The notes under the pieces are model-generated. The model saw only the letters and a program-made list of their open reading frames with translations, did no database searches and was not told the DNA's origin. This document shows, one piece after another, positions 18,379 through 33,732 of a DNA stretch of 64,000 nucleotides (position 1 is the first letter of the stretch; each line of letters starts with the position of its first letter). The stretch lies in contig CAZKCI010000121.1 in assembly GCA_964551475.1 (NCBI GenBank), forward strand, positions 14,308 to 78,307. Reading direction: 5' to 3'. The DNA is from an uncultured bacterium. Its GTDB lineage: Bacteria; Auribacterota; Erginobacteria; Erginobacterales; CAZKCI01. The position numbers and the translations under genes are program-made.

Positions 18379-18475
18379 GCATCCTCCTTACTCAATCAGA
18401 TTGTTGTAGTAGATACATCAGCGATTTCAGTCATTGCGAGCGAAGCGAAGCAATCTCTTGGTGCGCATGGGAGGG

Positions 18476-19749: not shown

Positions 19750-20265
19750 TCAATAATAATCTTTCTTGCACTGCGTCGCCACAGGAGCGGCGACGGTTCG
19801 TTCAAGAATCGTCTCCAGTTCGGCGGCGAGTATCGCGAGTGTGCGCTCCACCTCGGGGCTGAGCCCCTCCCCTTCCCGCCGGTCCTTCGCCTGGATACCC
19901 AGGAGATAACACCGGACGCCGCCTTCTTTCGCCAGATAATCCAAGACGAGGGAGAGGGGGGCGTTATGCGTGGATACGTTTCCCGCGACCAGGGCGTCGG
20001 ACGGGAGGAGAGACCACTCGCCCGGCTTTTTCCCCATCTCCGCGGCGTCGGCGACGAGGACATAATCGGGGCGGAGTGCGAGGACCGGCCCCAGATAGTT
20101 TTCGGGGGCGCTCCCGGCCGGGATAGCGCCCCCTAATCCCCGCGACTGAAGCCGCCGGGCCAGCTCGTCGCCGGCGGCGTCGTCGCCCCGGCCGGCCCGG
20201 CCCACTCCGAGAAGGACCACCCGCAGACCGCGGAGCGAGTCGAGTGTGTTTGATGCGGGACTCAT
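19750..20265 (-). CDS. hycI: Hydrogenase maturation endopeptidase (HycI/HybD family)
   Basis: LLGVGRAGRGDDAAGDELARRL matches the GxGN/DxxxxDDGxG motif of [NiFe] hydrogenase C-terminal processing proteases; last gene of the hydrogenase operon. Confidence 0.8.
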   Translation of the reverse strand: MSPASNTLDSLRGLRVVLLGVGRAGRGDDAAGDELARRLQSRGLGGAIPAGSAPENYLGPVLALRPDYVLVADAAEMGKKPGEWSLLPSDALVAGNVSTHNAPLSLVLDYLAKEGGVRCYLLGIQAKDRREGEGLSPEVERTLAILAAELETILERTVAAPVATQCKKDYY

Positions 20266-20344
20266 CGGGAGAGGTTGATGCGTTGATAAGGGGCGAGATG
20301 TGCTGCGCCTTATCAACCTATATGCATATCGACGTATCCACCGC

Positions 20345-20935
20345 TCAAGCGCGGTCGGACAGGACCACGTCTCTCTTGCAGCGGGGGCAGAGGACCTTCA
20401 TCCGGTCGGCGCGGACGGGGGGGCGGCCGAGCGGGAGCGCCGTCTCCCCTTCCCGGCGGAAGGACAGGAAGACCGTGGGGCAGGCATAGGCGAGCGAGCC
20501 CAGCCGCTCGTAGATCCAGCGCAGGTGCTCGCGGGTGGCCACGGCCTCCCCGCAGCACTCGCAGAGGACGAGCTCCTTCTCCACCTTTTCGATCGAGGCG
20601 TTGCGGTCGAGACAGGCGAGATCGTAGTCGGTCGAATGGTTGCAGCCGGTCTTGGTGGTGCAGAGGGCATGGCACTGGCCGCAGAAGATGCACATCCCGT
20701 AGCGGCGGACGAGTTTCCTCAGGGCCGCGGGCCCGGAGTCTTCCACCTCGATCGCCCCGGTCGGGCAGACCCGGGCGCAGGCCCCGCAGCCCACGCAGAC
20801 CAACTCGTCCCACTTCATCTGCCCCCGGCTGGTCGCGGGCGGCACGGAGGGGGCCGCCGGAAAGGCGAGCGTGTAGGGACGGCTCACCAGCGAGCGGATA
20901 GCGTAGACGAGTTCGCGAAGTTTGGGCGTTTTCAT
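20345..20935 (-). CDS. 4Fe-4S ferredoxin-type subunit of the membrane-bound hydrogenase (NuoI/HycF/MbhN-like)
   Basis: Two CxxCxxCxxxCP motifs (CVGCGACARVCP, CIFCGQCHALC). Confidence 0.8.
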   Translation of the reverse strand: MKTPKLRELVYAIRSLVSRPYTLAFPAAPSVPPATSRGQMKWDELVCVGCGACARVCPTGAIEVEDSGPAALRKLVRRYGMCIFCGQCHALCTTKTGCNHSTDYDLACLDRNASIEKVEKELVLCECCGEAVATREHLRWIYERLGSLAYACPTVFLSFRREGETALPLGRPPVRADRMKVLCPRCKRDVVLSDRA

Positions 20936-20939
20936 TGCG

Positions 20940-21010
20940 CAACGTATGACGTGCAACGTGTAACGTGCAACGGCCCTGACCGGCGATCCGTTCCACGTTA
21001 CACTTTACAC
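20940..21010. repeat. ACGTGYA heptamer array followed by its inverted copy (dyad) between the ferredoxin gene and mrpG-like gene; family H
   Basis: acgtatg acgtgca acgtgta acgtgca acgg ... ccgttccacgttacactttacacgtcacgcg. Confidence 0.8.
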
Positions 21011-21011
21011 G

Positions 21012-21341
21012 TCACGCGTTCTTATCCTTATGGTAATCGTCTCTCACGCTCCCCTTCCACAAACCCACGCCGGAGCGATGCGCCGCCCGGGCGATGGCAT
21101 GGGCGGCGACCGGCGAGGAGAGGAGCAGAAAAAGGATGCAGAGAAGGCATTTGATCCCGCCGGCGGTGAAGCCGAGCATGAGAAAAGTGCCGAAAAGGAT
21201 GGACGAGGTCCCCAGGGTCACGCACTTGGTGGAGGACTGGAGGCGGTTGTAGAGGTCGGGGAAACGGATCAACCCCAGGCACCCCACGAGGTCGAGAGCC
21301 AGTCCAAAAACCACGAAGACCATGCCGAGCGCGTCACTCAT
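21012..21341 (-). CDS. Mrp/Mnh antiporter subunit G-like (MbhC-like)
   Basis: Three-TM small subunit with the MnhG family pattern. Confidence 0.75.
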   Translation of the reverse strand: MSDALGMVFVVFGLALDLVGCLGLIRFPDLYNRLQSSTKCVTLGTSSILFGTFLMLGFTAGGIKCLLCILFLLLSSPVAAHAIARAAHRSGVGLWKGSVRDDYHKDKNA

Positions 21342-21702
21342 CGAGCCGTTTCCTTTCCAGGTACTTGGCCAGGGCCAGCGTCCCGATGAAAGATTGCAGC
21401 GCCCAGGCGATCCCGATGTCGATGTACCAGCCGCGGCCCGTGGGCACGCCGAGCAGGGCGCAGATGCCCACGATCAAAATCCCCAGGATGTCGATCGCCG
21501 CCACCCGGTCGGGCGCGCTGGGCCCCTTGATGATCCGGAAGACGCAGAAACCGGCGGCGAGCAGAATTATGTACTGGCAGTGCCGGAAGAAACGGGCGTG
21601 GGGCAATCCGGGAGACATCAGACTGGGGAGAGCCTCGATCGTCAGAGCCAGGACGACCGCGGCCAGAATCAGGATGGCGCCGATCAGCCAACGCGCTTTC
21701 AT
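21334..21702 (-). CDS. Mrp/Mnh antiporter subunit F-like (MbhB-like)
   Basis: Three-TM small subunit, MnhF pattern. Confidence 0.7.
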   Translation of the reverse strand: MKARWLIGAILILAAVVLALTIEALPSLMSPGLPHARFFRHCQYIILLAAGFCVFRIIKGPSAPDRVAAIDILGILIVGICALLGVPTGRGWYIDIGIAWALQSFIGTLALAKYLERKRLDE

Positions 21703-22199
21703 TCGAAGATCCTCTTCAGAACGGACTCAAACCGGCCGACGACGGCCCGGGTCGCCTCCTCCATCCCCTCCCCTGGCACCGCGACCCAGTGGACGTAGAG
21801 GACTCCCGCCTCCCGGTCCACATCCACCGTGAGGACGGGGCGGGCCAGAGTGAGCGTATTGGCCAGAAAGGTGAGACCGGTATCGGAGACCAGGCCGGTC
21901 TTGATCCTGACGATACCGGGACGGATGGGGAGCTTCGGATGGATCGTCCGCCAGGCGAGGTCCAGGCTCGCTTTCAGGCATTCCCAGAGAAAGAGGGGGA
22001 GGTAGACGCCGAACCAGGCGTAGCGCCTGACCTCCGCAAGCTGATGGGGACGGCCCACGAACATGTCGCCGGTGAGGACGGCCACCAGGCCCGCCACCAG
22101 AACACCGGCCAGCAGTTCGGGAACCGTCACCGGCCAGGTGAGCCCCAGCCAGACCAGGAGGGAGAAGATAAAGAGCGCGATCCGGCTTTGCGTTTTCAC
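21699..22199 (-). CDS. Mrp/Mnh antiporter subunit E-like (MbhA-like)
   Basis: MnhE-type: two N-terminal TM helices plus soluble domain. Confidence 0.7.
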   Translation of the reverse strand: MKTQSRIALFIFSLLVWLGLTWPVTVPELLAGVLVAGLVAVLTGDMFVGRPHQLAEVRRYAWFGVYLPLFLWECLKASLDLAWRTIHPKLPIRPGIVRIKTGLVSDTGLTFLANTLTLARPVLTVDVDREAGVLYVHWVAVPGEGMEEATRAVVGRFESVLKRIFE

Positions 22200-22200
22200 A

Positions 22201-23691
22201 TCAGTATCCCCCCTGGCCGAACATGGACAACACCCGGTCTCCGTAAGCCCGCCCCGCCGTCAAAACGGCGGCGGCCCGACCGAAATAATCACCGGGACAG
22301 AGCAGCAGGAGACCGCCCAGGAGACAGATCGCAGCCAGTATGACCATGGGAATTGCCATGGAGGGCGGTGGGTCCTTCGCCCCGTCGAGTGCGGGCGGTC
22401 GTTCCCGGAAGAATGTCCCGCGGAGAAACTTCAGGTAGTAAGCGAGCGTGACCACGCTCACCGCCGCCGCCAGGAGCGCCCCGACCACATGCCCGGCGTC
22501 GACGGCGGCGAGTATGAGCAAGAGCTTGCTGAAAAATCCCGCCGTGGGAGGAATCCCCGATATGGAGAAGGCGGCAATGAGGCTGGTCGTCCCCGTGAGC
22601 GGCATCCGGGGAAATAACCCTCCGAGCTTCTTGAGGTCGCGCGTGCCGGCCGAGGCCTCGATCGCTCCGGCGTCGAGGAAGAGGAGCGACTTGGCGGCGG
22701 CATGGTTGACGAGATGGAAAAGGCCGGCCATGAGCGCCAGCGGCGTCCCGATCCCCAGGGCGAAGACGATATAGCCGACCTGGCTGATCGACGAGTAGGC
22801 GAACATCCGCTTGATATCGTCCTGCCCGATGGCGAGAAACGCCCCCACCGTCATGGAGAGGAGACCGGCATAGAGCATCAGGTCGGGAAAGGGGGCGGGG
22901 TTTCCGAAAACATTGAAAAGGATCCGGGCGAAGGAATAGATCCCCAGTGACTTGATCAGGACGCCGGAAAGAAGCGCGGAGACGGGAGCGGGGGCGGCGG
23001 GATGGGCGTCGGGAAGCCAGGAATGAAACGGGACCACGGCGGCCTTGATCCCGAAACCGGCGGTGAAGAGGGCCAGGCTGAAGAAAAGCAGGGGCGTCAT
23101 CTCCAGAGAGGAGGCGAGATGGGCCAGGCTCAGCGTGGAAGCCTGGCCGTAGAGGAGGGCGATCCCGAGAAGGATCAGGCAGGAGGCCAGCCCCCCCATC
23201 ACCAGGTATTTCAAGGAAGCCTCCAGCTCCTCCGCCTCGGTCCCGAAAGCGACCAAGGCGTAGGAGGCGATCGAGGCGATCTCCAGGAAAACGAAGAGGT
23301 TGAAAATGTCGGCAGTGATGACGACGCCGTTCAGACCGGCGATCATCAGGAGAAAGAGGGCGTAGAACTTCCAGCGGTCGGTGAAGCGGTCTACGTAGCG
23401 CACCGCGTAGACCGAACAGAGGGACGCCATCAGATTGACCGTGAGGAGGATCAGGGCGCTCAGATGGTCGAGGACCAGCCCGATCGAAAGCGGCGGGCCC
23501 CATCCCCCCACCCGCCCGACCAGGATCCCCGTCTCGGGCAGGGCGAAGGCGGCGAGCAGGGCGAGGAGGAAGAGGGAGACGGCGGCGGCGACCGAGACGG
23601 TCTCGCCCACGCGCTTGAGCTGGCGCCCCAGGATGGCGATGAGAAAGGCGCCGCCCAGCGGAATCGCCGCAAATAATGGAAGATAATTCAT
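22201..23691 (-). CDS. MrpD/NuoN-like proton-translocating antiporter subunit (MbhH-like)
   Basis: About 14 TM helices; conserved motifs of complex I antiporter-like subunits (…FHSWLPDAH…). Confidence 0.85.
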   Translation of the reverse strand: MNYLPLFAAIPLGGAFLIAILGRQLKRVGETVSVAAAVSLFLLALLAAFALPETGILVGRVGGWGPPLSIGLVLDHLSALILLTVNLMASLCSVYAVRYVDRFTDRWKFYALFLLMIAGLNGVVITADIFNLFVFLEIASIASYALVAFGTEAEELEASLKYLVMGGLASCLILLGIALLYGQASTLSLAHLASSLEMTPLLFFSLALFTAGFGIKAAVVPFHSWLPDAHPAAPAPVSALLSGVLIKSLGIYSFARILFNVFGNPAPFPDLMLYAGLLSMTVGAFLAIGQDDIKRMFAYSSISQVGYIVFALGIGTPLALMAGLFHLVNHAAAKSLLFLDAGAIEASAGTRDLKKLGGLFPRMPLTGTTSLIAAFSISGIPPTAGFFSKLLLILAAVDAGHVVGALLAAAVSVVTLAYYLKFLRGTFFRERPPALDGAKDPPPSMAIPMVILAAICLLGGLLLLCPGDYFGRAAAVLTAGRAYGDRVLSMFGQGGY

Positions 23692-23707
23692 TGTCCGTCC
23701 GTCAAGT

Positions 23708-24049
23708 TCATCCCCTGAGTTTGCGGATCTTGGTGACGTCGAATGTCCCGTATTTCTCGTAGAGCCGGATGGCCAGGGCGACCAGGAGAAGCGTGGTGGC
23801 CAGCCCGATGACGATCGAGGTGTGGGCGATGACCTGGGGGATGGGGTCGACCATCTCCCCGATCACCCGGTCCGGCGCTTCGATCGGGGCATGGCCGCCC
23901 GTCCGGTAGCCGATCAGGACCAGGAGGAGGTTGATCGCATAGGTGATGATCGAGAGGCCGATGATGATCTTGATCAGGTTGCGTTTGGTCGCCAGGCTGT
24001 AGATCCCCACGGCCATCAGGACGAAACAGAGTATGTAGACAAGATTCAT
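23708..24049 (-). CDS. MrpC/NuoK-like subunit (MbhG-like)
   Basis: Three-TM, 113 aa, NuoK/MnhC pattern. Confidence 0.75.
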   Translation of the reverse strand: MNLVYILCFVLMAVGIYSLATKRNLIKIIIGLSIITYAINLLLVLIGYRTGGHAPIEAPDRVIGEMVDPIPQVIAHTSIVIGLATTLLLVALAIRLYEKYGTFDVTKIRKLRG

Positions 24050-24094
24050 TGTGGTTATGCCTCAATCATGCCAGCAAACCGGCGGTCAGGCCGT

Positions 24095-24175
24095 CCATTG
24101 TAGGCCGGTTCTGTGAACCGGCGACCAGCCTCGCCGCCCGCTCACAGAGCGGGCCTACAGCCCGCACGACCGAGC
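24095..24175. repeat. GTAG-type REP pair (CTGTAGGCC plus hairpin, then an inverted copy) inside the hydrogenase operon; family E
   Basis: tgtaggccggttctgtgaaccggc ... gcccgctcacagagcgggcctacag; same family at 36538-36600 and 45514-45630. Confidence 0.85.
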
Positions 24176-24181
24176 TATCTC

Positions 24182-24649
24182 TCATGGCTTCTCCTGGTCG
24201 TCATGCCCGGAGCTGAAAGCGGACATGACGGTGAAAAAGATGTAGATCCCCCCCGCCACCGCGAGGGCGACGGCGATTTCGGAGAGGGGGATGGTCCCGG
24301 CGCCGAGGAGCGCGAAGCGCTGGCCCGCGGGAAGCCAGCTCTGGAAGAAGGCGCCGGCGGCGTAGCCGAAAAGAGCGATGGCAAGGAAGATCAGCGCGCC
24401 CAGGCCGATCAGCGGCAGGGCGGCTTCGGGACCGAACTTTTTCCAGACCCGCTCCCGGCCGAAGGCCAGGACGAGTTCGATCAGGGAGAGGGCGATGATC
24501 ACACCGCCGGCGAATCCGCCCCCCGGCCCGAAGTGCCCGTGGAGAGCGATGTAGACGCCGAAGAGGAGGCTCAAGCCCACGGTGAGCCGGGCGATCGTCT
24601 TCACGATCAGGCTCATCCCTTCCTCGCGGCGATCGTTCTGTCCGTTCAC
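24182..24649 (-). CDS. MnhB-domain subunit (MbhF-like)
   Basis: Four-TM hydrophobic protein with MnhB-like pattern; start may be the internal MSLIV. Confidence 0.65.
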   Translation of the reverse strand: MNGQNDRREEGMSLIVKTIARLTVGLSLLFGVYIALHGHFGPGGGFAGGVIIALSLIELVLAFGRERVWKKFGPEAALPLIGLGALIFLAIALFGYAAGAFFQSWLPAGQRFALLGAGTIPLSEIAVALAVAGGIYIFFTVMSAFSSGHDDQEKP

Positions 24650-25176
24650 GGCTCGTTCCTCCGTCTTCTCCCGATCCGGCGGAGGATCGCAATCGCTCCG
24701 ATCACGGCCGCCACCAGGACCGCCGTCTCCCCCAGCGTGTCATACGCCCGGTAGCCGAGCGCGATGGAGGCGCCGACGTTGGCCGCGCCGGTCGCTGGCG
24801 GGCCCGCCAACTGGTAGATCTGGGCCACGGTCATCCGGGGCGAGCCGAAGGGGGGAAGACCCGTCGCCGCGCGAACGGCGGCGATGATGAAAACCGCCAG
24901 GAAGACGGCCGCGATCGCCCCCACCACCCAGCGGGTCCGGGTGGGGACCGGGTCCTCCTCCCGGTGGGCGGTCGCCCGGATGAGGAGGATCAGGACCAGG
25001 ATTTCCACAACGATCTGGACGATGGCCAGGTTGGGGGCCTGGAGGATGAGGAAGGCGACGGCGAGACCCAGTCCGACCGTCCCCACCACGATCACCGAGG
25101 AGTGGAGGTCCTTCATCTCCACCGCGGCGATGGCGGCGGCGATCATCAGGACGAGAAGTATGATCAGTCCGAGCAT
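24646..25176 (-). CDS. MrpA C-terminal-domain-like subunit (MbhD/MbhE-like)
   Basis: Five-TM hydrophobic protein in MbhD/E position. Confidence 0.6.
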   Translation of the reverse strand: MLGLIILLVLMIAAAIAAVEMKDLHSSVIVVGTVGLGLAVAFLILQAPNLAIVQIVVEILVLILLIRATAHREEDPVPTRTRWVVGAIAAVFLAVFIIAAVRAATGLPPFGSPRMTVAQIYQLAGPPATGAANVGASIALGYRAYDTLGETAVLVAAVIGAIAILRRIGRRRRNEP

Positions 25177-25215
25177 GGCGTCCGAATTATGCTAGTCCAC
25201 GTTTGCTAGTCGATT

Positions 25216-25335
25216 TTGTGGGAGCGACATTCTTGTCGCGATCCCGGCCAACATGGATCGGGGCAAGATGCCCCTCCCACAGTGACAATTTTTTCGCGCT
25301 TGTAAGTTCTAGTGTGGGAGCGGCGTCTGCCCCAT
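25216..25335. repeat. TGTGGGAGCG...CCTCCCACA palindromic element (one full plus one partial copy) inside the hydrogenase operon; family D
   Basis: Outer inverted termini tgtgggag/ctcccaca enclose GC-rich hairpins; recurs at 27216-27430, 48673-48782 and 53095-53300. Confidence 0.85.
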
Positions 25336-25383
25336 CCCGAAATCTTCTTCGGGACTCGCCGCGATCCAGTCCATCATGGCGCA

Positions 25384-27201
25384 TTAGTATTTTCCGATCA
25401 TCACCAGCAACAAGATAATGAGAGCCGCCAGCGCCCAGCTCATATACCAGGGCAGGACGCCGGTGTGGAGCCGCGAGAGGAGAGCGGAGAGCGAGAGTGT
25501 CGCCGCCCTGGCTCCGGCGTAGAGATCGCAGAACGCTTCCCTCTTGAGAAGGCCTCCCACGAGAGGCATCTCGCTGAGCGTGGCGTAAAAACCGGTCCCG
25601 GTGACGCGGGCGTCGTCGGGCAGGGCCTTTTCGCCCCCGATGAAGGGGACGTCCTCGCGGATCTTGGACGAGGCGCCCATCCGGTAGATCAGCCAGCCGA
25701 TCAGGCCGCTACCGACCAGGAGGAGCGCGGCGAGGTCCGGGCGGAAAGAGCCGATGATCGGCCCCCCGGAAGGTCGGGGGACCCAGCCCCCGACCGAACC
25801 GAATATCTTCTCCAGGAACGCGGGCGAGGCCGCGAGTCCCAGGACCACGCAGAGAAGGCTCAAAACGGCCGAAGGTAGCCAGAGCGGCCAGGAGACCTCG
25901 TCCCGCTCTGCGGGAGAGCCGGAGGGACGGACGCCGAGGAAGATCGCGTGGAGGAGCTTCATGAAGCTCGCCAGCGTAAGCGCCGAGCCGAACATCGCCG
26001 CGATCAGCCAGAGGGGCCAGAGTTTGGCGCCCACGCCCGCCATCCCCCTCATCTCGATCACGCCCTGGTAGATCATCCACTTCGACATGAAGCCGTTCAA
26101 GGGCGGGACGCCGGAGATGGCCAGCGCGGGGACGAGGAAAGCCAGGAAAGTGATCGGCATGGCCTTGGCCAGCCCCCCGAGCGAGTCGAGGTCGGTCGTC
26201 CCCCGCTTCTTCTCCACCGCTCCGACGGAGAGGAAGAGGGACTGCTTGTAGATCGCGTTGTTGAGCATATGGAAGAGCGCGCCCAGTATCCCCGCCGCCG
26301 TCCCCGTCCCGATCCCCAGGACCATGTATCCGGCCTGGGAGACGGCGTGCCAGCCCAGGAGTTTCTTCGCGTCGTGCTGGCCCAGGGCGAAGAGGACGGC
26401 GAGGATGATCGTCAGAGAACCGGCGGCGAGCAGGATCAGGGAGAAGACCGGACCGGGCGAGAACAAGACCCGGCAGGTCAAGAAAAGCAGGTAGACGCCC
26501 GCGAGCTTGTCGATGGCCGCGGGGAGGAATGCCGCCGCCGGCAGCGGGGCTTTCTGGGCCGCGTCGGGGAGCCAGGAGTGAAAGGGGACCGCCCCCATCT
26601 TGGCGAAGGCCGCAACCAGAAAGCAGAGAAAGGAGAGCGCTTTCGGCCAGTCGGCCACTGCGACCGGGGCAGCGGGGAAATACCATCCCCCGGTGCAGTG
26701 GGCATAAAGAACGATACCGACAAGAAGAAAAGCGTCTGACCCGCCGACGATGATGAAGGTTTTTTTCGCCGCCCCGGAAGCCGGCGAGCCTCCGGAAGCA
26801 ATCAGCAGATACATGACGGCCCCCAGGATGCCCCAGAAAAGCAGGAGATCGTAAAGAGCGCCCGCAAGAAAGACAGCGAAGGCAGACCCGAGGGCGAAGA
26901 GAAGGCAGGCGTCGTACATCCGGCCTTCCTCGCTGGAAGCGGTAAAACGCTCGGAATAGATAGCGATCAGGAATCCGATAAAGGCCGAGGCCAGAATCAG
27001 AAAAAACCGCATATGAAAATAGGCAAAAGTTTGGAGATCCTCGGGAAAGCGGAAGAATTCCCGGGCGGCGGAAAGAAGACAGTAACCCGCGACCAGGAAG
27101 ACGATCAGTTTCCTCACCCCCCGCCGTTTTTCGGAGAGGAGGAAACAGACGATCCCCGCGACGAAGGGAACCAGAATGATTGTCGGCAACAAGTTCATCA
27201 A
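25384..27201 (-). CDS. NuoL/MrpA/HyfB-like large antiporter-type subunit of the hydrogenase
   Basis: 605 aa, about 16 TM helices, conserved FHSWLPDA motif. Confidence 0.85.
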   Translation of the reverse strand: MMNLLPTIILVPFVAGIVCFLLSEKRRGVRKLIVFLVAGYCLLSAAREFFRFPEDLQTFAYFHMRFFLILASAFIGFLIAIYSERFTASSEEGRMYDACLLFALGSAFAVFLAGALYDLLLFWGILGAVMYLLIASGGSPASGAAKKTFIIVGGSDAFLLVGIVLYAHCTGGWYFPAAPVAVADWPKALSFLCFLVAAFAKMGAVPFHSWLPDAAQKAPLPAAAFLPAAIDKLAGVYLLFLTCRVLFSPGPVFSLILLAAGSLTIILAVLFALGQHDAKKLLGWHAVSQAGYMVLGIGTGTAAGILGALFHMLNNAIYKQSLFLSVGAVEKKRGTTDLDSLGGLAKAMPITFLAFLVPALAISGVPPLNGFMSKWMIYQGVIEMRGMAGVGAKLWPLWLIAAMFGSALTLASFMKLLHAIFLGVRPSGSPAERDEVSWPLWLPSAVLSLLCVVLGLAASPAFLEKIFGSVGGWVPRPSGGPIIGSFRPDLAALLLVGSGLIGWLIYRMGASSKIREDVPFIGGEKALPDDARVTGTGFYATLSEMPLVGGLLKREAFCDLYAGARAATLSLSALLSRLHTGVLPWYMSWALAALIILLLVMIGKY

Positions 27202-27215
27202 AGAGCTATCGCATG

Positions 27216-27430
27216 GTTATATTGTGGGAGCGACATTCCTGCCTGCCCCGATAGTCCCGGCAGAAGTGCGGGACTATCGGGGCCGCGATCCGAGTCAACC
27301 TGGATCGGGGCAAGAATGCCCCTCCCACAATCACACTATCGATCGTGTCTATGTCATTTCTGTGGGAGCGGCGTCTCGCCGCGATCCCTGCCAGCCCGGA
27401 TCGGGCCGAGGACGGCCCTCCCACAAAATC
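27216..27430. repeat. Two family-D palindromic elements between the NuoL-like gene and the hydrogenase large-subunit gene
   Basis: tattgtgggagcgacattcctgcctgccccgatagtcccggcagaagtgcgggactatcgggg...cccctcccaca, plus a second copy at 27355-27425. Confidence 0.85.
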
Positions 27431-27435
27431 ATTCA

Positions 27436-28656
27436 TCAGAGCGCGCGTTCCCGTTTGAACGTCCCTTCCATCGGAAGCCTCAGCTCGCGGGCGATCCGCG
27501 AAGTTTTTTCCCGGGAGAGACGGGCCAGATCCTCTCCGCTCAGGGCGATCTTCCCCGTCTTCGAACGCACCGCCGCCATCCGCTCGGTGCAACAGTAGCA
27601 GGGATCGACCGCAGCCAGGATCAGCGTGGCATCGGAGACGGTCTGCCCTTTCACCGCGATGTAGTTGGTGGGGAGGTTCATGTAGCTGGGCGCCCGGATC
27701 TTGTAGCGAACGGGCCGGGAGGAGCCGTCGGAGAGGACGTAGTGGAAGCACTCGCCCCGGGGGGCCTCGTGGCGGCCGATCCCCTCCCCCGCCGGAAGCG
27801 ACTTCACGCGGAGGTCGAACTCGCCCCCGGGAAGGTGCTTCAGGCACTGCTCGATGATCTTGATCGATTCGTACATCTCCAGAACCCTGACCAGGGCCTT
27901 GTCGAAGACGTCGCCGTTCTTCCCCAGTATCACCTTCCACTCCACGCGGCCGTAGGCGGCGTAGGGATCGTCGCGGCGAACGTCGATATCCACGCCGGAG
28001 GCGCGGGCCGTGGGGCCGAGAGCCCCCGTGGAGATGATGTCCTCCCTGGTCAGCACCCCTACCCCCTTCAAACGCGCGTGGAGAACGGGGTCGTCGAGGA
28101 TCGCCCCCCGGAATGTGTCCAGGACCGGCTTGAGACCGTCCAGCGTTTTCAGTATCCAGGGGATGTCGTCGTTGTTCAGATCCCGGCGGATCCCCCCGAT
28201 CTTCATCATCGCGTAGTGCTGGCGGTTCCCGGTCACCTTCTCGAAGATGTCCAGGACCGGCTCCCGCGTCTTCCAGGACCACATCCAGAGGGTGTTGTAG
28301 CCGATGAAATGGCCGGCCAGTCCCAGCCAGAGAAGATGGCTGTGCAGGCGCTCCAGTTCCCCGATGAAGGTGCGGGCGTAGAGCGCCCGCTCCGGGGCGA
28401 CGATCCCGGCCAGGTCCTCCATCGCGTTCACGCCGGCAAAGGGGTGGCTCGACGAGCAGATCCCGCAGATCCGCTCGACCGCGAAGAGCGACTGGTCGAA
28501 GGTTTTCGACTCGCAGATCTTCTCGATCCCGCGGTGATTGTAGCCGAGATCGATCTCCAGCTTCTCCACCCGCTCCCCTTCGACGTGGAGGCGGAAAAAC
28601 TCCGGCTCCTCCTGGAGCGGGTGGTAGGGGCCGATGGGGATTATGGTTCGAGTCAT
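27436..28656 (-). CDS. Group 4 [NiFe] hydrogenase large (catalytic) subunit, NuoD/HycE/MbhL family, with C-terminal extension
   Basis: N-terminal RICGICSSSH and C-terminal DPCYCCTER Ni-Fe ligating motifs; about 38 residues follow the C-terminal motif, i.e. a cleavable tail consistent with the hycI gene in the operon. Confidence 0.9.
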   Translation of the reverse strand: MTRTIIPIGPYHPLQEEPEFFRLHVEGERVEKLEIDLGYNHRGIEKICESKTFDQSLFAVERICGICSSSHPFAGVNAMEDLAGIVAPERALYARTFIGELERLHSHLLWLGLAGHFIGYNTLWMWSWKTREPVLDIFEKVTGNRQHYAMMKIGGIRRDLNNDDIPWILKTLDGLKPVLDTFRGAILDDPVLHARLKGVGVLTREDIISTGALGPTARASGVDIDVRRDDPYAAYGRVEWKVILGKNGDVFDKALVRVLEMYESIKIIEQCLKHLPGGEFDLRVKSLPAGEGIGRHEAPRGECFHYVLSDGSSRPVRYKIRAPSYMNLPTNYIAVKGQTVSDATLILAAVDPCYCCTERMAAVRSKTGKIALSGEDLARLSREKTSRIARELRLPMEGTFKRERAL

Positions 28657-28685
28657 GATTTAGTCAGGGCCACGGCAGCCAGTTA

Positions 28686-29171
28686 TCATTTGTCATTTAT
28701 CATTTTACATTGGTCAAGCGGCTTCGGCGCGGCCCGACAGGGAGTTTTTCTCAGGGGGAACTTCTTGTCTTTCCACTCCTCGCTGGTCAGCAACCGCTCG
28801 GTCGACGCTCGCCCCTTGAACTCGATCCCCAGGAGCTCGGCCATCTCCCGCTCGATCCAGTCGGCGGCGGGGACAAGGTCGGCGATGGAGTCGACCGCCG
28901 GCTTCTCCTTCCCCAGCCTGACCCGCAGCGAAAGGAAAACGCCGGAGCGGTCGTCGGAGAAATGGTAGAGGACCTGGAAGCCCTCCATCGTCTCCACGCC
29001 GCTCGCGATGCTGAAACGGAAGCCAAGGTCGCGGAAGGCGGCCCCGGCCACGGGGCGGACGGAAGCGGGACGGATCTCGGCGTAGATCCGCTGGGGGCTC
29101 TTCTCCTCCCACTGCAAAATTTCCGAAGGAAATTTTGAGGAGAAATATGTCCGCATCTCTGCCGCGTTCAT
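28686..29171 (-). CDS. NuoC-like (30 kDa) hydrogenase subunit (MbhK/HycE N-terminal-domain-like)
   Basis: NuoC family pattern (…FQVLYHFS…LSLRVRL…); start chosen at MNAAEM. Confidence 0.75.
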   Translation of the reverse strand: MNAAEMRTYFSSKFPSEILQWEEKSPQRIYAEIRPASVRPVAGAAFRDLGFRFSIASGVETMEGFQVLYHFSDDRSGVFLSLRVRLGKEKPAVDSIADLVPAADWIEREMAELLGIEFKGRASTERLLTSEEWKDKKFPLRKTPCRAAPKPLDQCKMINDK

Positions 29172-29605
29172 CGTTTCTTCTCCAGCTTCCCCCTCACCAC
29201 TCCCAGCGCCTTCACCAACCCCGCGATCATCGCCTCCGGCTTGGGCGGGCATCCCGGGATGAAGACGTCCACCGGCAGAACCTGGTCCACCGGCAGGGGG
29301 GCGGTGTAGCAGCCCTTGAACATCCCCTGGTCCATGGCGCAGGCGCCGAAGGCCACCACCGCGCAGGGCTTGGCCATCGACTCGTAGACCTGGCGGACCC
29401 GGGGCGTGGCCTTGAGCGTCATCACACCCGTCACCAGAAGAACATCGGCATGGCGGGGGGATCCCACCAGGAGCACTCCGAAGCGCTCGGCGTCGAAGCG
29501 GGGGGTGAGCAGGTCCAGGATCTCGATGTCGCAGTTGTTGCAGGAACCGGTCGAGAGGTGGAAGACCCAGGGCGATTTCAACAACGCTTTATGGACGAGT
29601 TTCAT
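29168..29605 (-). CDS. [NiFe] hydrogenase small subunit, NuoB/HycG/MbhJ family
   Basis: Cys ligands for the proximal [4Fe-4S] cluster (GSCNNC ... GACAMD ... GCPP); start chosen at MKLVHKAL. Confidence 0.85.
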   Translation of the reverse strand: MKLVHKALLKSPWVFHLSTGSCNNCDIEILDLLTPRFDAERFGVLLVGSPRHADVLLVTGVMTLKATPRVRQVYESMAKPCAVVAFGACAMDQGMFKGCYTAPLPVDQVLPVDVFIPGCPPKPEAMIAGLVKALGVVRGKLEKKR

Positions 29606-29622
29606 CAACCGATATTCTCTCC

Positions 29623-30555
29623 TTATAATCCCAACAACGCCAGAACCACCGCTACTATTGCCAGCCCGGCAACCGGTCCCCAAAAGAATCTCATCGCCTG
29701 ATCAATCCGAACCCGGGGATTGGTGTTTTTGATCACGATGGCGAGGAAAAGAATGAGAACGACCTTGCCTACCCCGGCGAGGATCCCCCCGGCCGTCGTT
29801 CCGATCCCTCCCCAGAAGAGAGCGACGAGAAAGACCGGCAGCGTAAAAAGGAGCATCATCCGGGTCAGGCGGAAAAGAGCGAGCGGGGTCCCCGAGTATT
29901 CCATAAAGACGCCTCCGCTGATCTCGGTCTCGGCGTCGGGGAGATCGAAAGGGGCGAGCGTGAGCTTCGCCTGCTGGCAAAGCAGGAGGACGAGGAAGGC
30001 GATCAGGCCGGAAACGGATCCCAGAAAGACCCCGTGCTCGCCCTGGAAGAGAACGATCTCTCCCAGCCGGATCGAACCGGCCTTGATCACGGGGACGAGG
30101 GCGGCGAGCAGGAAAGGCAGCTCGTAGGAGAGAAGAAGCTTCATTTCCCGGCTCGCCCCCAGCGAGGCGAGCGGATTGGACGAGGCGAATCCCCCTACGA
30201 TCACCGCCGTCGCCGGAACGGTGAGGAGATAGAGAACGACGATCAGGTCTCCGGCCGACGCCCCCCCCGGGGCCAGGATGCCCTTCCAGATGATCAGCGC
30301 CGCCACCACCGCCGCGGCGAAGCCGGCGAGCGGAGAGAGGAGAAAAGCCGCCCGGGAGACTCCGGCGGGGACGATCGTCTCCTTGCCCAGGAGCTTCAGG
30401 ACGTCGGCGGCCGGCTGGAACCAAGGCGGACCGACCCGCCACTGGAAGCGGGCGGAGAGCTTCCGGTCGAAAAAGGAGGCGGCCATCCCCCCGGCGGCGG
30501 TGAAAAGGAAGCCGGGGAAGACCAGCAGAGCGAAGATGGATTGCAGGACTTCCAT
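29623..30555 (-). CDS. NuoH/HycD/MbhM-like membrane subunit
   Basis: Eight-TM protein, NuoH family pattern; start chosen at MEVLQSIF (the upstream R/P-rich extension in the ORF track is unlikely). Confidence 0.8.
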   Translation of the reverse strand: MEVLQSIFALLVFPGFLFTAAGGMAASFFDRKLSARFQWRVGPPWFQPAADVLKLLGKETIVPAGVSRAAFLLSPLAGFAAAVVAALIIWKGILAPGGASAGDLIVVLYLLTVPATAVIVGGFASSNPLASLGASREMKLLLSYELPFLLAALVPVIKAGSIRLGEIVLFQGEHGVFLGSVSGLIAFLVLLLCQQAKLTLAPFDLPDAETEISGGVFMEYSGTPLALFRLTRMMLLFTLPVFLVALFWGGIGTTAGGILAGVGKVVLILFLAIVIKNTNPRVRIDQAMRFFWGPVAGLAIVAVVLALLGL

Positions 30556-30556
30556 A

Positions 30557-31036
30557 TTACACTTTTTCTTTCTCCCACTTCCCCGCTTTAACCAGCACGT
30601 GCTCGCCGTAGGGATAGAGCCCCTGCGCGTCGTCGGCGGCAAAGTCGCCGTAGCGGATCGCCCCCTCCGGAGCGGAGCGGGCGCAGAAGGGGATCTCTCC
30701 TGAAGCCAGGCGCCCCAGGCAGACGTCGCAGGTCGAGGTATGAAGGGGAATGTATCCGGGGATGATCGTCCCGAACGGGCAGGCGGCGGCGCAGGAAAAG
30801 CAGTTGGAGCAACGCAGGACATGGCGCACCACGATATCGTCCGCCCGCTTCTCCAGGGCGTCCTGGGGACAGGAAGCGACGCAGGTGGCGAGCTCGCAGC
30901 GGCGGCAGATCACCACGAAGGTCGCTTTCTCGACCAGGTCCTGAACCCCGCGGTTCTCCGGATGGTCGGAGTAGGAGCAGGAGACAGCGTCAGAGGGAAG
31001 ACGCCGCAGGGCTTCGAGATCTATTAGTAGCTTCAC
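30557..31036 (-). CDS. 4Fe-4S ferredoxin-like iron-sulfur protein
   Basis: Several Cys clusters (CRRCELATCVASCP, CSNCFSCAAACP). Confidence 0.7.
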   Translation of the reverse strand: MKLLIDLEALRRLPSDAVSCSYSDHPENRGVQDLVEKATFVVICRRCELATCVASCPQDALEKRADDIVVRHVLRCSNCFSCAAACPFGTIIPGYIPLHTSTCDVCLGRLASGEIPFCARSAPEGAIRYGDFAADDAQGLYPYGEHVLVKAGKWEKEKV

Positions 31037-31065
31037 GAGAGAGTCAGAGGCGTCCGAGATCCGGT

Positions 31066-31140
31066 GTAATGTGTAAGGTGTAATGTGTAATGAAAAACTG
31101 ACTGGCCATTATTACACCTTACACTTTCCACCTTACACCC
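31066..31140. repeat. GTGTAAK heptamer array with inverted partner (dyad) between the ferredoxin and HydG-like genes; family H variant
   Basis: gtgtaat gtgtaag gtgtaat gtgtaat g ... ttacaccttacactttccaccttacacc. Confidence 0.8.
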
Positions 31141-31973
31141 TAGTGCCATATCCCCTCGATATCCTTGATCTTGTCGTAGGGCAGGACGGGGCCGTCTTGG
31201 CAGACGAAATAGGGCCCCAGGCGGCAGTGGCCGCACTTGCCGATCCCGCAGGACATGTTCTTTTCCATGGATAGATACAGGGAAGCCTGAGGAAGTTTCA
31301 GCTCCGCGATCAGCTTGAAGGTGACGAACTTCATCATCACCGGAGGGCCGCAGACCACCGCCACCGAGCGGGCGATGTCGATATCGAGATTGTCGAGCGT
31401 GGTGGTCACCAGCCCCACCTTCCCGCCCCAGGCCATCCCCTCCGGAACCTTGTCCACGGTTACCCGGAGCTCTATGTTCTTGTGCAGGCGGGGCCAGGAC
31501 TCCATGATCAGGCGCTTGTAGATCATGTCCTCCGGGCTCCTCGCCCCGGCGCAGAGGACGATCCTCGGGTAGGCCTCGATGCCGTGGACCAGGGCCAGGA
31601 AGAGCGCCCGCAGGGGGGCGAGTCCCACCCCTCCCCCGACGAGCACGATCTCCTTCCCCGCGAAGGCGGAGAGAGGGTACTCCTTCCCGAAGGGGCCCCG
31701 CAGACCCACCACCGCCCCTTTCTCGATCCGGTGAAGAGTCTCGGTCACCTTCCCCGCCTTCATGATCGTCACCTCGATCGTCTCCTTCTGAAAGGGAGAG
31801 GAAGAGGGGGTGAAGGGGGCCTCCCCCAGACCGGGTATGGCGAGCTCCACGAACTGACCGGCCCGGAAAGCGAAGGGGGACGACGGCTTCAGGACGAAGG
31901 TCTTGATCGTCGGAGACTCGGTGATGATCTCCGTGATCGTGGCCGGAATCGATTGATAAGGATTTGTCGTCAT
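31140..31973 (-). CDS. FAD/NAD(P)-binding oxidoreductase with C-terminal [2Fe-2S] site, sulfhydrogenase gamma (HydG)/AsrB/PyrK-like
   Basis: Ferredoxin-NADP-reductase-like fold motifs (GQFVEL, LVGGGVGLAPL) and C-terminal CGIGKCGHC cluster. Confidence 0.8.
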   Translation of the reverse strand: MTTNPYQSIPATITEIITESPTIKTFVLKPSSPFAFRAGQFVELAIPGLGEAPFTPSSSPFQKETIEVTIMKAGKVTETLHRIEKGAVVGLRGPFGKEYPLSAFAGKEIVLVGGGVGLAPLRALFLALVHGIEAYPRIVLCAGARSPEDMIYKRLIMESWPRLHKNIELRVTVDKVPEGMAWGGKVGLVTTTLDNLDIDIARSVAVVCGPPVMMKFVTFKLIAELKLPQASLYLSMEKNMSCGIGKCGHCRLGPYFVCQDGPVLPYDKIKDIEGIWH

Positions 31974-31995
31974 AGGACGCCCGGAATGCTTGACC

Positions 31996-33018
31996 TTATT
32001 CCGACTCTATCCTCTTCAGAATCTTGCGAATGTCAATTTTTCCCATGCACGCCTCCACGCAGCGGCCGCATCCCGTGCAGGCCAGGGCGCCGATCAGGTC
32101 GGGGAAAAACTGGAACTTCTTGGAGAAACGGTTGCTGAGCCGCTCGGAGCGGCGGGTGCGCGGGTTGGATCCGCCCGCCTCCCGGGAGAAGCCGGGATAC
32201 TGGCAGGAGTCCCAGTTGCGGAGTCGGACGGAGCCTTCCCGGGCGGGAGACTCCTCCAGAATGAAGCAGTGGCAGGCGGGGCAGACCAGGTTGCAAGCCC
32301 CGCATTCGACGCAGGGGACCGCTTCCTCCTTCCAGAGCGGATCGCGGCTCTTCTCCTTCACCCGAGCCGCCGCAGGCGCCTTGTCCAGCTGGCCCTGTTT
32401 CTTCAGCAGGTCTTTCAGATCGCCGAGAACCTTCTCCCTCAGTTTCGTCCGGGAGGAGATCTCCTCCTCCTTCGCCCCGCGGAAACGGGAAGCGGAGTCC
32501 CGGATGATCGCCTCTCCCTTCTCGCTCCCCGTCTCCACCAGGCAGCCTCCGGGCAGAGGCGTCAGGTTGAGGTCGAAACCCCGCAAGGGATGGGGCCGGC
32601 CGCCGACCACCGGGCAGAAGCAGACCTCCTTGAAGCCGGCGCAGTCCTGGCTCACCAGCAGAGTCTCTTCCCTCGCCTGTCGATAGAAAGGATCGGCGCA
32701 GTTCCCCTGCAAAAAGATGTAATCGAGAACCGGGAGGGCGGCGAGATCGCAGGCCTTGAGGCCGACGAGCGCCCGGGGACGGGATGCGGGCGCGACCGTT
32801 CCGGGGAAACGCGCCACCGTCTCGCGGCCGGAAAAAAGGAAGCTTTTCAGCGATTCGATCGCCCGGTAGGGCGACGGCTCGGCCTTCCCTTCCCCGGACA
32901 GGGGGGAAAACGTCCAATCCCCGTCCAGGCGGCGGGGGATGAGGAGATCCCGGGCGCAGGCGAGATCGGACAGCCAGCGCGGGAACTCCGCGTCAGAGAT
33001 GAAATGGAGAGCGCTCAT
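31996..33018 (-). CDS. Iron-sulfur protein, sulfhydrogenase beta (HydB)/AsrA-like
   Basis: Cys clusters CVECGACNLVCPACHC and CTGCGRCVEAC; pairs with the HydG-like gene. Confidence 0.75.
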   Translation of the reverse strand: MSALHFISDAEFPRWLSDLACARDLLIPRRLDGDWTFSPLSGEGKAEPSPYRAIESLKSFLFSGRETVARFPGTVAPASRPRALVGLKACDLAALPVLDYIFLQGNCADPFYRQAREETLLVSQDCAGFKEVCFCPVVGGRPHPLRGFDLNLTPLPGGCLVETGSEKGEAIIRDSASRFRGAKEEEISSRTKLREKVLGDLKDLLKKQGQLDKAPAAARVKEKSRDPLWKEEAVPCVECGACNLVCPACHCFILEESPAREGSVRLRNWDSCQYPGFSREAGGSNPRTRRSERLSNRFSKKFQFFPDLIGALACTGCGRCVEACMGKIDIRKILKRIESE

Positions 33019-33665
33019 TCCCGCCGTCTCCGGGAATGCAGGCCGAAAGAAAGAGTCGACAGGGATCCGGCCAGGTCGATATCCTCCACGATCACGCTCT
33101 CGGGGAGAGTGAGGCGGGTCGGAGCGAAGTTCAGTATCCCCCGGATCCCGGCCCGGACCATCTCCTCCGAGACCTCCTGGGCGGCGGCGGCGGGGACGGC
33201 GATGACGCCGAGCTTTATCCCCTCCTCTTGCACGGTCCGGTGAAGGTCGGCGAGGGGGCGGATGGTCCGCGACGACCCCGGGACCTTCTGCCCGGCGAGG
33301 CGGGTGTCGAAGACCGCGGCGATCGTGAACTGGCGGCTTCCGAATCCCTTGTGGGAGAAGAGGGCGCGGCCGAGGTTCCCCGCTCCCACCAGGGCGACCT
33401 TCTGCTCCCGGTCGGTGCCCAGAATGCCTTCAATCCGGCCGAGCAGAGTGCCCACGGCGTAACCCTTTCCCCGGACGCCGAACTGGCCGAAGTGGGCGAG
33501 GTCCTTGCGCAGCTGGGCCGGCTGGACGCCGGCCAGTTTCCCGAAACGGGCGGAGGAGACGGTGGCCGTTCTCTCCGCGCCCAGGGACAGCAGGATGCGC
33601 AGATAGAGAGAGAGGCGGGCGATCACCGCCCGGGGGATCGGGGAATTTGCGTTGCGCAGACTCAT
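33015..33665 (-). CDS. rex: Redox-sensing transcriptional repressor Rex (NADH/NAD+ sensor)
   Basis: N-terminal winged helix (IPRAVIARLSLYLRIL), Rossmann GxGxxG (VALVGAGNLGRAL); overlaps the start of the hydB-like gene, so it is first in the operon. Confidence 0.9.
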   Translation of the reverse strand: MSLRNANSPIPRAVIARLSLYLRILLSLGAERTATVSSARFGKLAGVQPAQLRKDLAHFGQFGVRGKGYAVGTLLGRIEGILGTDREQKVALVGAGNLGRALFSHKGFGSRQFTIAAVFDTRLAGQKVPGSSRTIRPLADLHRTVQEEGIKLGVIAVPAAAAQEVSEEMVRAGIRGILNFAPTRLTLPESVIVEDIDLAGSLSTLSFGLHSRRRRE

Positions 33666-33714
33666 GGTTATGAATTGTCGATCATATTCTCCCCGCGGCC
33701 GGAGTCAAGGGCAA

Positions 33715-33732
33715 TTGTGATTTTTTTCACAT
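33715..33732. promoter_or_regulatory. Candidate Rex operator TTGTGATTTTTTTCACAT (16/18 match to TTGTGAAnnnnTTCACAA), 50 bp upstream of rex
   Basis: Direct match to the published Rex box consensus, within the promoter region of the rex-hydrogenase operon. Confidence 0.55.

Follow-up and report, generated by a model that had tools for sequence, protein, structure and literature searches.

The closest described system to the operon reported here is Hun, a supercomplex of 16 subunits encoded by hunA-P, whose large subunit HunG was placed in [NiFe] hydrogenase group 4g of HydDB with the signature CGIC/CYCC and which was reported from Atribacteria, Firmicutes, Omnitrophica, Elusimicrobia, Bacteroidetes and cultured Kosmotoga (Glass et al. 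2021, bioRxiv 10.1101/536078). A version from Saganbacteria (RX5A) was called 'enigmatic', and its cooF, asrA and asrB were listed as an 'oxidoreductase module' (Matheus Carnevali 2019, PMC6349859); a 'Mbh-Mrp-oxidoreductase type' was described with an oxidoreductase of unknown function (Meheust 2020, 10.1101/765248). In HydDB, group 4g is loosely clustered and uncharacterised, and is listed as 'ferredoxin-coupled (putative)' (PMC5037454). Here, a stretch of 64 kb (the window) from contig CAZKCI010000121.1 of an uncultured bacterium of the Auribacterota was analysed, and the operon at 19750-33665 on its minus strand is, to judge from a HunG signature and a gene order identical to the published hunA-P, a copy of hun headed by rex. 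It is proposed, with a probability of roughly 55%, that the encoded hydrogenase is coupled to the NAD(P)H pool under redox control by Rex.

Genes were identified from open reading frame (ORF) calls and from matches to Pfam and NCBIfam models, and the operon was found to be an unbroken run of 18 genes, comprising rex, 16 structural genes and hycI (Table 1). An initial annotation of this DNA had placed every one of these genes correctly but gave their number as 17, a miscount, as its own list names 18. Its description of a cluster with overlaps or short spacers fits most junctions, which overlap or are shorter than 30 nucleotides (nt), and from rex through hunB the start and stop codons are overlapping or close; four spacers, however, are longer, namely hunB-hunC (103 nt), hunG-hunH (234 nt), hunH-hunI (207 nt) and hunJ-hunK (132 nt). 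An ORF for 65 amino acids at 25187-25384 was rejected as spurious, with no Pfam match, no tblastn match in any related locus, and a position overlying a repetitive extragenic palindromic (REP)-like element.

The hydrogenase core carries the features of a catalytically competent enzyme, that is, two cysteine pairs in the large subunit, four cysteines for the proximal cluster in the small subunit HunE, a C-terminal extension and a maturation endopeptidase gene. Both cysteine pairs of HunG lie in the motifs RICGICSSSH (L1) and DPCYCCTER (L2), and the tail of 47 amino acids that follows the Arg aligns with the cleaved tail of Escherichia coli HycE; the solved chain of mature MbhL stops precisely at the equivalent Arg. 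Among solved structures, HunG matched MbhL (6CFW_L, 2.8e-86), HycE (1.9e-75) and MbsL (5.1e-48). The enzyme is not an Mbx/MBS, because all four NiFe cysteines are present and the match to MbsL is much weaker than that to MbhL. The initial annotation, which had called the enzyme a true group 4 [NiFe] hydrogenase and not an Mbx/Mbs-type protein, is borne out by the cysteine pairs, the HycE-like tail, hycI and the far better match to MbhL.

A scan with one genome per species yielded more than 575 large-subunit relatives, and the best 80 loci were examined. In 80/80 of these relatives, DPCYCC[TS]ER was followed by a tail of 31-47 amino acids. The best named matches of the large subunit were from Ca. 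Aureabacteria (88%) and a PVC-group bacterium, and the closest locus, L001, has pstS downstream as here, so that an Auribacterota-like organism is the probable source of the window. Two loci connect the set with the literature: L046 is UBA9627, named in a figure legend of Glass et al., and L024 is Ca. Tritonobacter lacicola, with a HydDB 4g enzyme. HunG was assigned to group 4g by proxy, from the L024 enzyme (66% identical, same operon) and from the Hun reference protein that Glass et al. reported as 4g.

HunP matched HycF (7Z0S_F, 1.2e-11) and MbhN (6CFW_N, 1.2e-10), and among 51 homologues its invariant cysteines were eight for two clusters plus four in a C-terminal CxxC...CxxC. The latter lies in a C-terminal extension at residues 132-193, and the alignment with MbhN (139 amino acids) stops before it. 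This extension could bind Zn or an extra cluster, and it may serve as a docking site for HunC.

The membrane arm was identified as an Mrp-type module from its homologues of the C-terminal part of MrpA and of MrpB, C, D, E, F and G in Pfam and NCBIfam. HunH aligned over its full length with MbsH' (6U8Y_X; residues 2-602 against 1-616), its best NCBIfam match was PRK08668, also over the full length, and the NCBIfam MbxH' model was matched as well. HunI aligned to approximately positions 600-800 of the NCBIfam MrpA models, which are 770-970 positions long. A split MrpA made of HunH and HunI was considered and rejected: HunI fits the C-terminal domain of MrpA, but HunH is matched best and along its full length by MbsH'/MbxH', and its similarity to the N-terminal domains of MrpA is only comparable to that with MrpD. 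On these alignments HunH is left as an 'H'-type' subunit. The full-length NuoL-like protein that the initial annotation had regarded as an unusual extra is this HunH, a standard MbsH'/MbxH'-type part present in nearly all loci.

At the front of the operon, HunA matched the beta subunit of Pyrococcus sulfhydrogenase 1 (9NEZ_B, 5.9e-34 over residues 37-337) and HunB the gamma subunit of sulfhydrogenase I (9NEZ_C, 1.5e-44, full length), so that the sulfhydrogenase-beta/gamma-like pair claimed earlier consists of genuine homologues; a publication behind 9NEZ was not found in the searched literature. HunA has 15 cysteines invariant in 56 homologues, and HunB has GEAPFTPSS, GGGvGlAPLR and four [2Fe-2S] cysteines conserved in 66 homologues; from these motifs, HunB is proposed as the site of NAD(P)H. 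Scores against curated models were well below the cut-offs for ShyB (151.7/690), HydB (131/750), ShyC (170/600), HydG (155/650), AsrA (TIGR02910, 114 against 323) and AsrB (TIGR02911, 185 against 289). HunA and HunB therefore form a sister family and are not members of ShyB/HydB/AsrA and ShyC/HydG/AsrB. A group 3b sulfhydrogenase is likewise not indicated, with beta and gamma scores under the cut-offs and a group 4 enzyme as partner, nor is AsrABC, with AsrA and AsrB below their cut-offs and no AsrC-like gene in a scan of 39 other ORFs of the window.

HunC has 12 invariant cysteines in 70 sequences, which probably carry three [4Fe-4S] clusters, and its matches in the Protein Data Bank (PDB) were Fe-S subunits of dimethyl sulfoxide (DMSO)-reductase-family enzymes, HycB, and HycB3/4 of the hydrogen-dependent CO2 reductase (HDCR). 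By analogy, HunC is proposed as the wire from HunAB to HunP: because HunC resembles the HycB/CooF connectors and HunP resembles HycF/MbhN, a wiring like that of formate hydrogenlyase (FHL) is suggested, with HunAB in place of formate dehydrogenase.

Synteny was determined by tblastn of all window proteins against the 80 loci. The order AsrA/HydB-like, AsrB/HydG-like, polyferredoxin, NuoH, small subunit, NuoC, large subunit, NuoL-like, Mrp-like A'BCDEFG, NuoI-like and HycI was found in 80/80 loci as far as the contigs reach, in hosts from at least 10 phyla (Omnitrophota, Elusimicrobiota, Planctomycetota, Clostridia, Spirochaetota, Actinomycetota, Caldisericota, Fibrobacterota, Nitrospirota, Chlamydiota and Auribacterota). 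The hunABC genes are present in every locus with enough upstream sequence, and hycI follows hunP in 35 loci. Variants were also seen. In two Spirochaetota loci (L047, L072), hunABC, hunEFG, hunP and hycI are grouped in a single block that precedes the membrane genes, with hunP and hycI right after hunG and hunD moved to the head of the membrane-gene block; L076 (2496-8975) has hunA-G, hunP and hycI with no adjacent Mrp-like genes; and several Elusimicrobia loci have a third antiporter-like gene. In a Planctomycetales metagenome-assembled genome (L035, 410-4439), a complete four-gene sulfhydrogenase-type [NiFe] cluster (beta, gamma, small, large) lies directly upstream of hun. A Nitrospirota locus (L008, 3148-6972) has a 3.8-kb insert between hunB and hunC encoding a pilin-like protein with an N-methyl motif and two proteins without Pfam matches; an identification of this insert with the molybdopterin protein reported by others at the same position was rejected on this content.

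The initial annotation had judged the content of the operon unusual in three features, all of which belong to a conserved and published architecture with the same gene order throughout the locus set. It had also named, as a finding that would count against it, a well-characterised subgroup with HydBG-like genes already in its known operons; such operons are indeed known, but group 4g is not well characterised (PMC5037454). The hun architecture is thus already published and widespread, and the additions made here are the details of HunAB homology, the invariance of the HunB motifs and the conservation of Rex boxes.

The same comparison bears on a hardly credible explanation in which HunAB serve an unrelated sulfite or sulfur reductase and are mere neighbours of the hydrogenase. 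HunAB are homologous to AsrA/AsrB and to sulfhydrogenase beta/gamma, and the sulfhydrogenase has also been described with sulfur-reductase activity (Ace Lake papers); yet no asrC or siroheme gene is present among the window's 39 other scanned ORFs, the linkage to the hydrogenase is invariant across phyla and survives rearrangement, and the start and stop codons from rex through hunB overlap or lie close together. Since the L035 cluster is a separate, complete sulfhydrogenase-type set adjoining hun, HunAB are dedicated paralogues. The invariant linkage, its survival in the Spirochaetota rearrangement and the paralogues in L035 argue that HunABC belongs to the hydrogenase.

The first gene of the operon encodes a bona fide Rex, which exceeded the cut-offs of three NCBIfam Rex models (232 against 126, 230.1 against 226, and 223.9 against 217), and it stands behind a predicted Rex box located 67 nt upstream, as had been noted initially. 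A Rex regulon is thus indicated by a winged-helix and Rossmann Rex protein together with an operator of the TTGTGAAnnnnTTCACAA type in the promoter region. Because the rex stop overlaps the hunA start, rex is probably co-transcribed with hun and autoregulated. The box is the only match with 3 or fewer mismatches in the 64 kb; 0.48 such matches are expected in the window by chance, so that it is not significant alone. It is regarded as significant because of its position, 67 nt upstream of rex and abutting a -35/-10-like pair (TTGACT-16-TATGAT, a candidate promoter by consensus match only), and because of its conservation in relatives. In the closest locus, L001, a Rex box is found at the same offset, and the box with the -35 element is the best-conserved block of the aligned upstream region.

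Rex boxes were surveyed in 56 loci, allowing 2 or fewer mismatches in the 200 nt that precede the first gene, with composition-preserving shuffles of the same windows as controls. A box was found in 24 of the 56 loci (7 perfect), against a mean of 0.10 and a maximum of 2 loci in the shuffles, and only 5 sites at the same threshold were found in the remaining 1.02 Mb. The consensus derived across loci was TTGTGA(A/T)AA(A/T)TTTCACAA. The rex gene is the first cistron in only 11/56 loci, and in the loci from Clostridia the box is placed between rex and hunA. The box is tied to the operon and not merely to autoregulation of rex, because 15 of the 24 box-bearing loci have no adjacent rex. To judge from these operators, Rex control is a property of hun operons in several phyla; a link between Rex and Hun was not found in the searched literature, and neither Rex nor NAD(P)H as a substrate is mentioned for Hun in the Hun/4g papers examined.

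From the observed gene content, homologies, motifs, synteny and operator conservation, we infer the following subunit contacts, electron donor, direction and ion coupling. The enzyme, a membrane-bound hydrogenase resembling complex I, would consist of four parts, namely the hydrogenase module HunE/F/G/P matured by HycI, the NuoH-like anchor HunD, an ion-translocating Mrp-type arm (HunH-HunO) with two antiporter-like subunits, and a soluble input module HunA/B/C. NAD(P)H would bind HunB at flavin adenine dinucleotide (FAD), and electrons would pass from the [2Fe-2S] cluster of HunB to the clusters of HunA, the three of HunC, the two of HunP, the proximal cluster of HunE and finally the NiFe site, where protons would be reduced to H2. 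At a low NADH/NAD+ ratio, Rex would occupy the operator beside the -35 element and repress rex-hun; when NADH accumulates, Rex would leave and the hydrogenase would be made as an electron sink. The idea of NAD(P)H coupling in the initial annotation gains from these comparative data, in that the HunB motifs and the Rex boxes suggest it.

The standard potentials E0' are -320 mV for NAD+/NADH and -414 mV for H+/H2. From these values, H2 formation from NADH was computed to cost approximately +18 kJ/mol under standard conditions and to be favourable only below ~60 Pa H2. This limit is consistent with the 2.2-40 Pa up to which a purified non-bifurcating NADH-dependent [FeFe] hydrogenase formed H2 from NADH (PMC7311640). 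Because the reaction is endergonic and favourable only at low H2, the Mrp-like arm is proposed to couple it reversibly to a Na+/H+ gradient. Above ~60 Pa H2, the gradient would be spent in pushing electrons from NADH onto protons, whereas at very low H2, or in the direction of H2 uptake, the reaction would be near equilibrium or energy-conserving, with little energy conserved at low H2.

A more far-reaching proposal, held tentatively and with somewhat less than even confidence, is that Hun would be the first group 4 hydrogenase to use NAD(P)H directly, a reversible and Na+/H+-coupled enzyme in which a sulfhydrogenase-type flavoprotein pair came to serve as an 'N-module' of separate origin from NuoEFG of complex I, under a Rex switch across phyla.

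Several points weigh against NAD(P)H coupling under Rex control. An endergonic hydrogenase that consumes a gradient is thermodynamically plausible and, to our knowledge, unprecedented for group 4. HunA and HunB fall below every curated equivalog cut-off, and function is therefore not transferable with confidence; NADH and NADPH cannot be told apart as substrates from the sequence, while Rex senses NADH only. No recognisable Rex box was found in 32/56 loci, the box of the window itself has 2 mismatches, and the transcript could be interrupted at the hairpin-rich internal spacers. In the searched literature no biochemical, genetic or expression characterisation of Hun/4g was found, and the only paper naming Hun proposes ferredoxin as its donor (Glass et al. 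2021, 10.1101/536078).

In the ferredoxin-coupled scheme, HunABC would take electrons from reduced ferredoxin to the NiFe site in an exergonic reaction, and H+ or Na+ would be pumped outward as in the membrane-bound hydrogenase (MBH) of Pyrococcus. This scheme agrees with the HydDB listing of 4g (PMC5037454), with a core closest to MbhL, whose enzyme is ferredoxin-dependent, and with the exergonic donor that outward ion pumping requires. It is nevertheless considered unlikely, as a ferredoxin-only wire needs no flavin subunit with an NAD(P) fold, yet the nucleotide and FAD motifs of HunB do not vary among 66 sequences; the solved protein nearest to HunB, a sulfhydrogenase gamma subunit, belongs to an enzyme named NADPH-dependent by NCBI; the conserved Rex boxes link expression to NADH/NAD+; and MBH takes ferredoxin without a HunABC-like module.

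Coupling to NAD(P)H is also compatible with the opposite direction, in which Hun would oxidise H2, reduce NAD(P)+ and pump ions outward as an energy-conserving uptake enzyme of lithotrophic or acetogenic growth. Thermodynamics favour H2 oxidation by NAD(P)+ at ordinary H2, acetogenesis was predicted for the Elusimicrobia lineages that carry the 'Mbh-Mrp-oxidoreductase type' (Meheust 2020, 10.1101/765248), and the HydDB table gives the soluble NAD(P)-linked [NiFe] enzymes as reversible. Against this, established Rex biology has Rex de-repressing at high NADH, which is the wrong signal for a producer of NADH, the group 4 enzymes characterised to date evolve H2, and many of the hosts were inferred to be fermenters. 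Uptake is accordingly rated quite unlikely, and the Rex logic of de-repression at high NADH fits NADH disposal better than H2 uptake.

A very unlikely arrangement is a three-way hub, in which ferredoxin, through HunC or HunP, and NAD(P)H, through HunB, would both exchange electrons with one cluster chain and Hun would act as both a gradient-coupled ferredoxin:NAD(P)+ oxidoreductase and a hydrogenase. Two separate Fe-S entry proteins beside a flavoprotein would suit such a hub, and a role as ferredoxin:NADP+ oxidoreductase had once been put forward for Mbx (quoted in PMC6349859); however, direct evidence for it is absent, and HunC docked on HunP as HycB is on HycF, a docking which is itself putative, would cover the ferredoxin site of MBH.

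Group 4g is the one large class of energy-converting hydrogenases without an assigned function, and operons of the Hun type are frequent in the anaerobic 'dark matter' phyla dominating sediments and aquifers. If NAD(P)H is the donor, published models that draw Hun/Mbh as a ferredoxin-driven, ATP-yielding Na+ pump need correction, and the enzyme could act as a redox valve that consumes energy. Widespread uncultured fermenters, among them Omnitrophota, Elusimicrobiota, Atribacterota and Auribacterota, would then dump NADH electrons as H2, spending ion-motive force or, when H2 is scarce, conserving it, and Hun would represent a second and independent way of linking nicotinamide nucleotides with a membrane arm of the complex-I type. 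The conserved Rex operator and the Kosmotoga strains, which carry hun according to Glass et al. (10.1101/536078), offer an experimental handle and a source of the enzyme.

Table 1. Features of the rex-hun operon in the window, with positions in window coordinates
Feature	Position	Strand	Basis or description
rex, NADH/NAD+-sensing repressor	33015-33665	-	Pfam Put_DNA-bind_N and CoA_binding; NCBIfam Rex models
hunA, AsrA/HydB/sulfhydrogenase-beta-like Fe-S subunit	31996-33018	-	Pfam Fer4_22
hunB, AsrB/HydG/sulfhydrogenase-gamma-like FAD, NAD(P), [2Fe-2S] subunit	31140-31973	-	Pfam FAD_binding_6, NAD_binding_1, DHODB_Fe-S_bind
hunC, CooF/HycB-type polyferredoxin	30557-31036	-	Pfam Fer4_11
hunD, NuoH/MbhM-like membrane subunit	29623-30555	-	Pfam NADHdh 9e-67
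hunE, hydrogenase small subunit, NuoB-like	29168-29605	-	Pfam Oxidored_q6; NCBIfam NuoB subfamily above cut-off
hunF, NuoC-like	28686-29171	-	Pfam Complex1_30kDa
hunG, [NiFe] large subunit	27436-28656	-	Pfam Complex1_49kDa and NiFeSe_Hases
hunH, antiporter-like subunit of 605 amino acids, MbsH'/MbxH' type	25384-27201	-	Pfam Proton_antipo_M
hunI, fused MbhD and MbhE (MrpA C-terminal domain)	24646-25176	-	Pfam MbhD, MbhE
hunJ, MrpB/MnhB-like	24182-24649	-	Pfam MnhB
hunK, MrpC/NuoK-like	23708-24049	-	Pfam Oxidored_q2
hunL, MrpD/MbhH-like antiporter subunit	22201-23691	-	Pfam Proton_antipo_M 5e-65
hunM, MrpE	21699-22199	-	Pfam MNHE
hunN, MrpF	21334-21702	-	Pfam MrpF_PhaF
hunO, MrpG	21012-21341	-	Pfam PhaG_MnhG_YufB; NCBIfam above cut-off
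hunP, NuoI/HycF/MbhN-like, two [4Fe-4S] clusters	20345-20956	-	Pfam Fer4 families
hycI, maturation endopeptidase for the large-subunit tail	19750-20316	-	Pfam HycI; NCBIfam hydrogenase maturation protease superfamily above cut-off
Rex operator (predicted)	33715-33732	-	TTGTGATTTTTTTCACAT; coding strand ATGTGAAAAAAATCACAA; 2 mismatches to TTGTGAAnnnnTTCACAA
Promoter-like -35/-10 pair	33681-33708	-	TTGACT, 16 nt, TATGAT; directly downstream of Rex box; consensus score 10/12
REP-like hairpin units TGTGGGAGSGRC...GCCCCTCCCACA	27216-27428		Repeat scan; in hunG-hunH spacer 27202-27435
REP-like family TGTGGGAGSGRC...GCCCCTCCCACA	25217-25333		Repeat scan; in hunH-hunI spacer 25177-25383
Palindrome TGTAGGCC...GGCCTACA	24099-24159		hunJ-hunK spacer; 30-nt arms, 80% complementary
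GGTGTAAT-rich palindrome	31063-31139		hunB-hunC spacer; inverted repeat, 29-nt arms, 86% complementary

The four long spacers all contain palindromic elements, of three kinds, in agreement with the three repeat families recognised initially, and two of the three kinds are also copied elsewhere in the window. Further REP-like copies lie at 48667-48779 and 53085-53295, and the segment 48667-48766 is 94% identical to 27216-27315 (100 nt). Copies of the hunJ-hunK palindrome were found at 36541 (36541-36565) and at 45516 and 45606 (45516-45630); no other copy of the hunB-hunC palindrome was found in the window. A terminator scan inside the operon gave a count no higher than in shuffles, with no site in the long spacers by this pattern scan. 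In the Auribacterota-like loci L001 and L024 the spacers are also expanded, partly at other junctions, whereas the operons of Clostridia and Omnitrophota are compact; the hairpins were therefore inserted in particular lineages, probably recently, and they may affect the stability of the mRNA.

The genes on either side have no relation to the operon, a divergent LysM/YkuD gene being its upstream neighbour. Downstream of hycI, on the same strand, lies an operon for a pst-type phosphate ATP-binding cassette (ABC) transporter (14786-19647), in which two PstS-like binding proteins are encoded in tandem; the stop codon of hycI is overlapped by a promoter-like site, and between hycI and pst nothing resembling a terminator was seen. 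A pst neighbour (pstS) is also found downstream in L001. No hyp genes and no further hydrogenase genes were found in the window, and Rfam and tRNA scans gave no matches.

Repeats were also observed away from the operon. In an ORF-free region of ~1.9 kb (37563-39432), an 80-nt unit forms two nearly identical tandem arrays (37847-38260 and 39009-39428; 5.2 copies each, 91-95% matches), each preceded by a 67-nt repeat (37604-37670 and 38784-38850), so that the whole looks like a duplicated block of ~1.18 kb, with GC-rich hairpins in the units; the arrays have no Rfam match and are not CRISPR-like. Intergenic arrays of the 8-nt unit GGTTCAGC/GGTTCAAC lie at 6830-6927 and 57460-57567 (12-13 copies each) and at 63305-63363, and TTTGAGATCTGAAA-like intergenic arrays with periods of 7, 14 and 21 nt lie at 13275-13388 and 60487-60619. 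A 129-nt tandem repeat (44346-44644; 2.3 copies, 94% identity) separates a DUF2284 gene from a gene for a xylose-isomerase-like TIM-barrel protein, and the gene at 2914-5151, for an SBBP beta-propeller repeat protein of 745 amino acids, has several internal families of direct DNA repeats with periods of ~120 and 195 nt.

In comparison with known systems, the operon is nearest to the published Hun, with the same 16 genes in the same order, the same CGIC/CYCC signature, the assignment to 4g by proxy, and similar hosts (uncultured anaerobes of sediments and the subsurface); it differs in having rex first, hycI last and hairpin repeats that enlarge four spacers. With MBH of Pyrococcus furiosus (6CFW), which gave the best PDB match of the large subunit, it shares the core of large, small, NuoC, NuoI and NuoH subunits, the MrpB-G-like subunits and MbhD/E, whereas MBH has 14 subunits, a single antiporter-like subunit, CLSC instead of CYCC in the L2 motif, and no HunABC module, ferredoxin being taken directly. 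With the membrane-bound sulfane reductase MBS/Mbx of P. furiosus (6U8Y), it shares the additional H'-type antiporter-like subunit, HunH being aligned in full length with chain X, but MbsL lacks the NiFe cysteines, and MBS has neither HycI nor a flavoprotein module.

For the input side, the nearest likeness is to E. coli FHL (7Z0S) and to the Fdh-Mfh-Mnh and CODH-Mch-Mnh complexes (CODH, carbon monoxide dehydrogenase) of Thermococcus onnurineus, in which an input dehydrogenase is followed by a HycB/CooF-type polyferredoxin and a HycF/NuoI-type subunit. Among complex-I-type proteins, HycF is the one nearest to HunP, and the tail of HunG can be aligned with that of HycE. In Hun, however, the input is a flavin/NAD(P) protein pair and not a formate or CO dehydrogenase. 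That pair has the fold and cofactor motifs of the beta and gamma subunits of sulfhydrogenase I/II (group 3b, 9NEZ) and of Salmonella AsrAB, the FAD- and NAD(P)-domains of gamma and AsrB being like those of HunB, but it is attached to a membrane group 4 enzyme instead of a soluble group 3 dimer or a siroheme subunit. With complex I, Hun shares the ancestry of the membrane arm and the Q-module and, if the hypothesis holds, an input of nicotinamide nucleotides; the NuoEFG input of complex I, with flavin mononucleotide (FMN), is unrelated to HunAB, which are PyrK-like with FAD, and its acceptor is quinone, whereas that of Hun would be protons.

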